Assembly: GCF_003334335.1 (NCBI RefSeq)
Contig: NZ_QOWQ01000033.1
Reading direction: 5' to 3' (one strand)
DNA: 53,508 nucleotides
DNA from: Escherichia coli
Lineage (GTDB): Bacteria > Pseudomonadota > Gammaproteobacteria > Enterobacterales > Enterobacteriaceae
Below are positions 12,357 through 12,410 of the stretch, piece by piece (position 1 is the stretch's first letter; every line of letters begins with the position of its first letter). The translations under genes and the position numbers were made by a program. The notes below the pieces were generated by a model. The model did not search any database, was not told the DNA's origin, and was given only the letters and a program-made list of their open reading frames with translations.

Positions 12357-12410
12357 GCATCTGCAGCTCATGAGGATGAGAACCTCCGGGGGCAGGGAGG
12401 TTCGACTCGA

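Follow-up and report, generated by a model that had tools for sequence, protein, structure and literature searches.

A tRNA-like segment downstream of proK in Escherichia coli is very probably the orphaned 5′ module of a truncated tRNA-linked repeat

Introduction

The eptB-proK-dppA region of Escherichia coli, of which a stretch of 53.5 kb (hereafter the window) was analysed here, harbours immediately behind the proK terminator a segment of 54 nt that resembles part of the tRNA gene preceding it, which raises the question of its origin. The original prediction had described this segment as a tRNA 3′ fragment, and had proposed that it was either an old attachment-site remnant, left by site-specific integration and excision, or a chance similarity.

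Repeats linked to tRNA genes (tRNA-linked repeats, TLRs) were first seen at the tyrT locus by Egan and Landy in 1978 and were catalogued by Rudd in 1999 (as cited in PMC8144298). [quoted passage not shown] 2021, PMC8144298). They are found inside tRNA operons and also behind 5S rRNA genes (PMC8144298).

The proK gene, its terminator and two copies of its T-arm

The proK gene, coding for tRNA-Pro(CGG), was located on the plus strand at 12245–12321 (ARAGORN; Rfam tRNA, 60.7 bits), and its T-arm GGAGGTTCGAATCCTCT (12294–12310, plus strand) is the template that the downstream segment resembles. It is followed by an intrinsic terminator (12328–12356, plus strand), consisting of a 12-bp inverted repeat, AAAAGCCTGCTC/GAGCAGGCTTTT, with a 3-nt loop, the hairpin (12328–12354) leading into a T tract. 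This call rests on an inverted-repeat search, the T run, the RNA fold and a reading of the sequence. A simple consensus scan left this clear terminator unlisted, likely because most of the T run was counted within the maximal stem, an omission that cautions against reliance on such scans.

The segment under study, at 12357–12410, begins 36 nt past proK on the same strand. The sequence quoted in the original prediction, GAACCTCCGGGGGCAGGGAGGTTCGACTCGACG, lies where it had been placed, at 12380–12412, and its identity of 10 nt with the T-arm is real, since the window contains exactly two copies of GGAGGTTCGA, one within the proK T-arm (12294–12303) and one at 12396–12405. Shuffling gave an expectation of 0.06 matches, and none of 100 shuffled sequences reached two. 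With flanking bases included, 12 of 13 nt agree in direct orientation (GGAGGTTCGAATC versus GGAGGTTCGACTC), so that a copy of the 5′ strand of the T-stem and the first part of the T-loop, GGAGGTTCGACTC, occupies 12396–12408 (plus strand) and corresponds to proK 12294–12306; the exact part, 12396–12405, comprises the 5′ strand of the T-stem and the first 5 nt of the T-loop. The short inverted repeat noticed earlier was also recovered by inverted-repeat search and folding, as a hairpin at 12380–12403 (plus strand; GAACCTCC-GGGGGCAG-GGAGGTTC) in which an 8-bp stem, GAACCTCC/GGAGGTTC, encloses an 8-nt loop. A feature absent from the original prediction is an inverted copy of the T-arm, GAGGATGAGAACCTCCG, at 12372–12388 (plus strand), which spans 17 nt and is 88% complementary to 12293–12309. 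[quoted passage not shown]

Identification of the segment as part of a proK-linked repeat

The segment at 12357–12410 (plus strand) is 100% identical to nt 1–54 of the RtT sRNA annotated in the K-12 strain ER2683, and also to the terminal partial copy of rpK in K-12. We consider it, with high confidence, to be the orphaned 5′ module of a truncated proK-linked TLR (Rfam RtT, RF00391; rpK in K-12). A complete unit at proK measures 168 bp and is composed of the last 19 nt of proK, the trailer, the terminator (present in every TLR unit at this locus), the 54-nt module and a hairpin-rich body of 60 nt, after which comes the next copy of the proK 19-mer. In K-12 (ER2683 and MG1655), one such 168-bp unit is followed by a second 19-mer, AATCCTCTATCACCGACCA, then by the trailer, the terminator, the 54 nt and a REP element, and subtraction of one 168-bp period from this locus yields window positions 11600–13400 exactly (1,801 nt). 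The 108-bp stretch 12303–12410 (plus strand), made up of the last 19 nt of proK, the trailer, the terminator and the module, is present as a single copy in the window, corresponding to 0.64 of a unit, and twice in K-12, 168 bp apart, on either side of the 60-bp body. The dosage at proK is accordingly 1.64 units in K-12 versus 0.64 in the window, a difference of exactly one period, and strain P50 carries two full units after proK.

The K-12 locus is recognised by current annotation. PGAP places an RtT sRNA after proK in K-12-type genomes, and in many of 5,426 complete E. coli genomes the interval from proK to dppA holds about 168 additional bases and a feature annotated as "RtT sRNA". With the RF00391 model, for which the gathering threshold is 45 bits, the proK units of K-12 and P50 score 101 bits, those of Salmonella 96–100 bits, and four units from the tyrT locus 133–138 bits. 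The window returned no RtT match at the gathering score, and none at E ≤ 10 on 12200–12560, because only 54 of about 130 model positions remain. A second proK 3′ end (ATCCTCTATCACCGACCA, with up to three mismatches), present in the K-12, P50 and Salmonella alleles, was sought in the window and the sole occurrence is proK itself; the 60-nt body has no match longer than 13 nt there, and the conserved motif of TLR bodies (AACGTTGC..GCAACGGCCCGNAGGGCGAG..GAGT) is absent from it. What the window does carry are the conserved features of a TLR 5′ module, namely the GGATGAGAAC motif and a hairpin built from T-arm copies of the linked tRNA, in the position typical of the family, directly 3′ of a tRNA gene and co-oriented with it. 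As it has neither the 3′ copy of the tRNA end nor an RtT match, the segment is a fragment of a TLR and not itself a member of the family. Compared with rpK of K-12, it is alike in locus and sequence and lacks the 60-nt body and the second proK 3′ end. In the supplement of PMC8144298, rpK was deleted as 168 bp directly beside proK, in a strain devoid of all 22 TLRs, and the window carries the natural equivalent of this deletion. The segment therefore belongs to a known repeat family at a known locus, and is in this respect already known and ordinary.

A coding function was also considered for an open reading frame at 12355–12549, whose product would be arginine-rich and tpr-like. It was rejected as a mechanical reading frame through the REP sequence, and no ribosome-binding site was seen at a usable distance upstream.

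The immediate neighbour of the truncated unit is a REP/BIME pair (12415–12494, Rfam naRNA4, 69 bits), and it might be asked whether the module is simply part of it. The two abut, and the junction CTCGA/CGTAGGCC is common to all E. coli examined and to E. albertii. However, the REP model match spans 12415–12494 only, the module occurs in K-12 also 168 bp upstream with no REP beside it, and in Citrobacter, Salmonella and Siccibacter it has different REP neighbours or none. A REP would moreover have hundreds of copies per genome, while a 60-nt module query was found in one to five places per E. coli genome, which fits the units at proK (zero to four full ones and the terminal partial one). Membership of the REP element is thus extremely unlikely. 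Other Rfam matches in the window, all on the minus strand, comprise the cspA thermoregulator 5′ UTR (621–1048, 501 bits), the ES036/CssrF sRNA just past dppA (14730–14772), and the rdlD antitoxin RNA of an LDR toxin–antitoxin repeat (20568–20633).

T-arm copies as a property of the repeat family

The comparison of TLR units from K-12 (tyrT/tyrV, serX, lysQ/lysV and proK) and from the tRNA-Tyr locus of Sedimenticola revealed a common plan. An inverted copy of the T-arm is followed by a loop of 1–8 nt and by a direct copy of the 5′ strand of the T-stem with TTCGA; then come a body with conserved hairpins, GAGT(A/C) and the tRNA 3′ end. In four of the five tRNA/TLR combinations, the inverted copy carries an identical TC-to-GA change (GGATGAGAA), the lys units keeping TC. 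In a 5 × 5 comparison (Pro, Tyr, Ser, Lys and Sedimenticola Tyr), the T-arm fitted best by each module was, alone or in a tie, that of its own tRNA. TLR modules therefore copy the T-arm of the tRNA to which they are linked, and the resemblance of the proK module to tRNA is a property of the family and not a matter of chance. In favour of an accidental likeness between a GC-rich hairpin and a T-arm, it can be said that the exact match is only 10 nt long and that GGTTCGA is a common motif; the shuffling result, the additional inverted copy of 17 nt, and the fact that both blocks change in step with the linked tRNA at the five combinations leave this explanation practically no probability.

The repeats of 178 bp at the tyrT locus, or RtT RNA (rttR, tpr), illustrate both the shared plan and its variations. 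They likewise contain an inverted T-arm copy with GGATGAGAA, a short loop, a direct xAGGTTCGA copy, a CTCGAGCG...GAGTA body and a tRNA 3′ end, and form tandem arrays after the tRNA. They differ in that the T-arm blocks and the 3′ end derive from tRNA-Tyr, and in that no intrinsic terminator is included in the unit. Furthermore, a 3′-end copy closes the tyr array, whereas that of proK stops at the border between module and body, beside the REP.

With regard to structure, the two T-arm copies of a complete unit would form a hairpin, and GAGGAU would pair with AUCCUC of the terminal copy of the tRNA end. GAGGAT, the first 6 nt of the inverted copy at 12372–12388, corresponds to the 5′ strand of this helix, which closes in complete units on ATCCTC of the 3′ tRNA-end copy. 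RNAalifold, applied to 23 diverse units, returned the closing helix GAGGAU/AUCCUC (columns 10–15 with 132–137), the hairpin GAACCUC/GAGGUUC and the body hairpins, with some compensatory changes, in an alignment made up mostly of proK units and in which covariation could equally stem from both arms having been copied from the tRNA gene. The closing helix is also present in the single-sequence fold of the K-12 unit. Both the alignment and RNAalifold indicate that the hairpin stem is kept across TLR loci, whereas the loops are variable.

Copy number and allele history in E. coli

The number of units at proK varies widely within the species. Of the 5,426 complete genomes, 2,669 matched an 86-nt query that spans the body, in one to four places each, and 2,757 did not. 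The 60-nt module query matched 4,141 of the 5,426 genomes (megablast), a shortfall that is due to SNPs breaking the 28-nt seed and not to absence, as ST131 and O157 possess the module with two or three changes. These two lineages have 0-unit alleles joined to the REP as in the window. In both, GAGGAT is changed to GAGGAA, within the strand of the closing helix of complete units, and the ST131 allele also has an uncompensated change in the hairpin stem, from GAACCTCC to GAACCCCC. Alleles with zero and with one unit are both found among records 100% identical to the window, which indicates that copy number changes on a short timescale.

The window allele would have arisen by loss of one 168-bp period, a direction taken from outgroups and not from a dated tree, in view of the one or more full units retained by E. 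albertii, Salmonella, Klebsiella and Citrobacter. The likely mechanism is slippage during replication, or else unequal homologous recombination, involving the two 108-bp direct repeats.

Variation at the locus among sampled E. coli records consists of 168-bp units, of IS621 or IS1397 in the REP, and of one insert of about 770 bp; 836 complete genomes had less than 80% coverage in the locus search, and part of these were inspected. The two insertion sequences are located in the proK–dppA interval, in the REP or beside it (locus L003, 4829–5809, and L006, 4618–5966); beyond them, the match with the window starts again at 12414 and 12432, respectively. In E. coli HS-02 (L007, 922–2437), about 770 extra bases and an annotated 61-residue hypothetical protein are present between proK and dppA.

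Distribution of the module across species

One genome per species was scanned with the motif GGATGAGAACCTCC-N3-12-AGGTTCGA, which revealed 56 loci, nearly all of them in Enterobacteriaceae, with the module behind proK in about 50 species. The genera concerned include Escherichia, Salmonella, Citrobacter, Klebsiella, Raoultella, Enterobacter, Kosakonia and Franconibacter, among others. In 53 of the 56 loci, that is, in all whose retrieved stretch reached upstream, the motif lies about 50 nt past a tRNA with a GGAGG T-stem. This tRNA is proK in most loci, proM in three, proL in one and tRNA-Tyr in three (Sedimenticola metagenome-assembled genomes). The arrays comprise zero to three full units of 161–172 bp, mostly in the order eptB-proK-TLR-dppA. 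When the module of the window was aligned with 47 other distinct units, it proved near-invariant across genera, while the loop and the flanks vary.

The way in which the array ends is also shared to some extent. E. albertii (L019) has the truncated terminal unit and the REP junction of E. coli, and the array of Klebsiella pneumoniae ends at almost the same base, adjoining its own REP. In K. pneumoniae ATCC 13883 (L055, 12163–13884), the gap between eptB and proK is about 1.7 kb, versus about 90 bp in E. coli.

Some units are linked to other tRNA genes. In three loci (L025, L029 and L059) the module is found behind tRNA-Pro(UGG), the last gene of the argX-hisR-leuT-proM operon, and in another (L034) behind proL, coding for tRNA-Pro(GGG). 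Both proM and proL share the T-arm of proK, and the 3′-end copies found there match the local tRNA and not proK. TLR-like units are also present after tRNA-Tyr in the tyr-gly-thr tRNA cluster of the Sedimenticola genomes (L037, 8542–8700; L039; L044, 6167–6360), where GGGGAGGATGAGAACCTCC-GAAA-GGAGGTTCGA is followed by a body, then by GAGTAATCC and the tRNA end. With this non-enteric gammaproteobacterium, the family seems much wider than the Enterobacteriaceae.

An attachment-site scar at proK?

The scar proposed in the original prediction can be formulated as follows: the module would be the rest of attL or attR after an element with a tyrosine integrase had been excised from proK or had decayed there, and TLR units would more broadly be fossils of this kind. 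A scar of this type contains a second copy of the tRNA portion that extends from the crossover to CCA. Several observations recall such a process. Complete TLR units, like the attL/attR sites of P4-type islands, have on either side a direct copy of the tRNA 3′ end that starts in the T-loop, and the module, regarded as an 8-8-8 palindrome derived from T-arm sequence, bears a loose likeness, of our own drawing, to the core site of a recombinase. Integrase remnants are moreover found at tRNA-Pro genes of relatives. In Salmonella enterica Infantis, a truncated proK TLR unit is joined directly to a pseudogene for a P4-type integrase, beyond which lies an islet of about 6 kb, while in S. houtenae, without the islet (L009), the TLR array lies directly before dppA; and a related truncated integrase adjoins proL in Citrobacter.

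The window itself argues against this explanation. The part copied is the 5′ half of the T-arm and not the segment from the crossover point to CCA, and neither a second copy of the 3′ end nor an integrase is found between proK and dppA; the earlier remark that nothing island-like follows here was correct. The differences from P4-type att sites thus extend to the integrase, the island, the 3′-end repeat, the half of the tRNA concerned and the synteny, which is fixed: with eptB-proK-TLR-dppA conserved, tblastn with the Salmonella integrase fragment returned no match in the 56 loci or the window, the query being a short fragment with which distant integrases would be missed. A search restricted to a phage collection gave no partial proK 3′ end among the matches listed, which correspond instead to whole phage tRNA-Pro genes, except for three Salmonella sequences filed there that hold the proK locus itself. 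The variants sampled in E. coli are those of unit number, insertion sequences and the single insert described above, and TLRs occur after 5S rRNA genes and in tRNA operons as well. A literature search for proK as an integration site found nothing relevant.

The Salmonella locus deserves a closer description. In S. enterica Infantis SARB27 (AFYI01000003.1; L008, 2950–3460), the integrase pseudogene is in frame with a third, truncated proK TLR unit. The fragment matches positions 78–179 only of NCBIfam PRK09692 (E = 6e-24), and also Pfam Phage_int_M and SAM_3. The in-frame fusion suggested that the TLR body might be homologous to integrase coding sequence, a possibility that was rejected, the NCBIfam match starting at residue 9, after the junction. 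As the integrase homology starts past the TLR junction, the fusion looks like a deletion joint and not a sign of common ancestry. The islet, located before dppA (L010, 9157–16300), codes for an AAA-domain protein, a LacI-family regulator, STM3632 and a permease; no attR copy of the proK end was found in it. The search for intact relatives of this integrase returned only truncated proteins, in Salmonella at proK and in Citrobacter at proL. In the latter (Citrobacter sp., L074, 3679–4387), proL, a tRNA-Pro(GGG) gene located after yejM, is followed about 250 nt further on by a truncated integrase of 128 residues (Arm-DNA-bind_3 and Phage_int_M) and then by a type VI secretion gene cluster, no TLR intervening, and the whole has the make-up of a typical tRNA-Pro island. 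Together, the Salmonella and Citrobacter integrases indicate that integrative elements use tRNA-Pro genes in relatives, and the segment of the window is not thereby explained.

An attachment-site remnant is consequently not supported at this locus, and we regard the scar explanation as very improbable. Of the alternative first put forward, a remnant or chance, what stands is a similarity beyond chance and derived from a tRNA, neither of the two origins being upheld. The comparison of proK 3′ flanks across Enterobacteriaceae, recommended with it, gave conserved synteny and no integrase in the 56 loci, with the S. enterica islet and its integrase pseudogene as the exception. It had also been stated that universal conservation of the segment as part of a REP, with no island at proK, would speak against the scar; the segment is indeed conserved, but it is not part of a REP, and the Salmonella islet exists.

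Function or inertness of the remnant

Whether the orphaned module, as we interpret the segment, has any role is a separate question. In this strain it probably does nothing, since it lies behind a strong terminator, has lost both its pairing partner and the body, and has hairpin-breaking SNPs in other lineages. The 57-nt segment folds at −20.3 kcal/mol, no better than shuffled sequences (z = −1.5). A 93-nt stretch of trailer and module does fold better than shuffles (z = −3.3), a figure that includes the terminator.

The strong conservation of the module across genera nevertheless leaves a cis role in read-through transcripts as an alternative, which we consider unlikely. The module would then be a retained functional RNA acting in cis on pre-tRNA-Pro: it might base-pair with the T-arm over 17 nt (88% complementarity), serve as a processing signal or a second structural barrier, or act as a decoy for enzymes that bind the T-arm. 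Its near-invariance while loop and flanks vary, and the persistence of the stem at the tyr, ser and lys loci despite altered base pairs, point in this direction. TLRs of rRNA operons offer a precedent: rrA, rrB and rrF, the 5S rRNA-linked members (at rrnA, rrnB and rrnD) of the named family that includes rpK, terminate with 18 bp of the preceding gene's 3′ end. Situated between two terminators, they owe their transcription to terminator read-through, and they bind Hfq and CsrA in vitro (PMC8144298). These three are the exception in the same report, which states that TLRs have no known function; the 19 TLRs of tRNA operons, including rpK, scored below 0.01 in its CsrA predictor, and a strain without all 22 TLRs, rpK included, could be built (PMC8144298). 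Further arguments against a functional RNA are that the module sits past a 12-bp terminator hairpin with a T run, that its own hairpin has no T tract, that its fold taken alone is unremarkable, and that the changes of ST131 and O157 described above affect the stem, without compensation, and the closing-helix strand.

A broader proposal, which appears quite unlikely, is that the 5′ module is a functional or mechanistic device re-templated on whichever tRNA precedes it, either as a cis-acting RNA or as a recombination site. It follows from the match of the inverted and direct copies to their own tRNA at Pro, Tyr, Ser and Lys genes, from the Enterobacteriaceae to Sedimenticola. If true, the cis-RNA version would mean that the module controls the maturation of read-through pre-tRNA, and the recombination-site version that tRNA 3′ ends and trailers are duplicated through it, in which case the orphan module of the window would still be an active site.

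Concluding remarks

As a truncated repeat, the segment illustrates that incomplete TLR units escape the Rfam model, and that tRNA-like fragments behind enterobacterial tRNA genes should be checked against TLR/RtT units before they are labelled as att scars. Its wider interest is modest: TLRs are without known function, yet their module, derived from the T-arm, is conserved and tracks the linked tRNA, and what novelty is left concerns the unexplained biology of TLRs in general and not the segment of the window. The proK array is naturally polymorphic in copy number, with no full unit in about half of E. coli genomes and one to four in the rest, and the natural 0-unit strains represent ready-made deletions for testing the function of TLRs.
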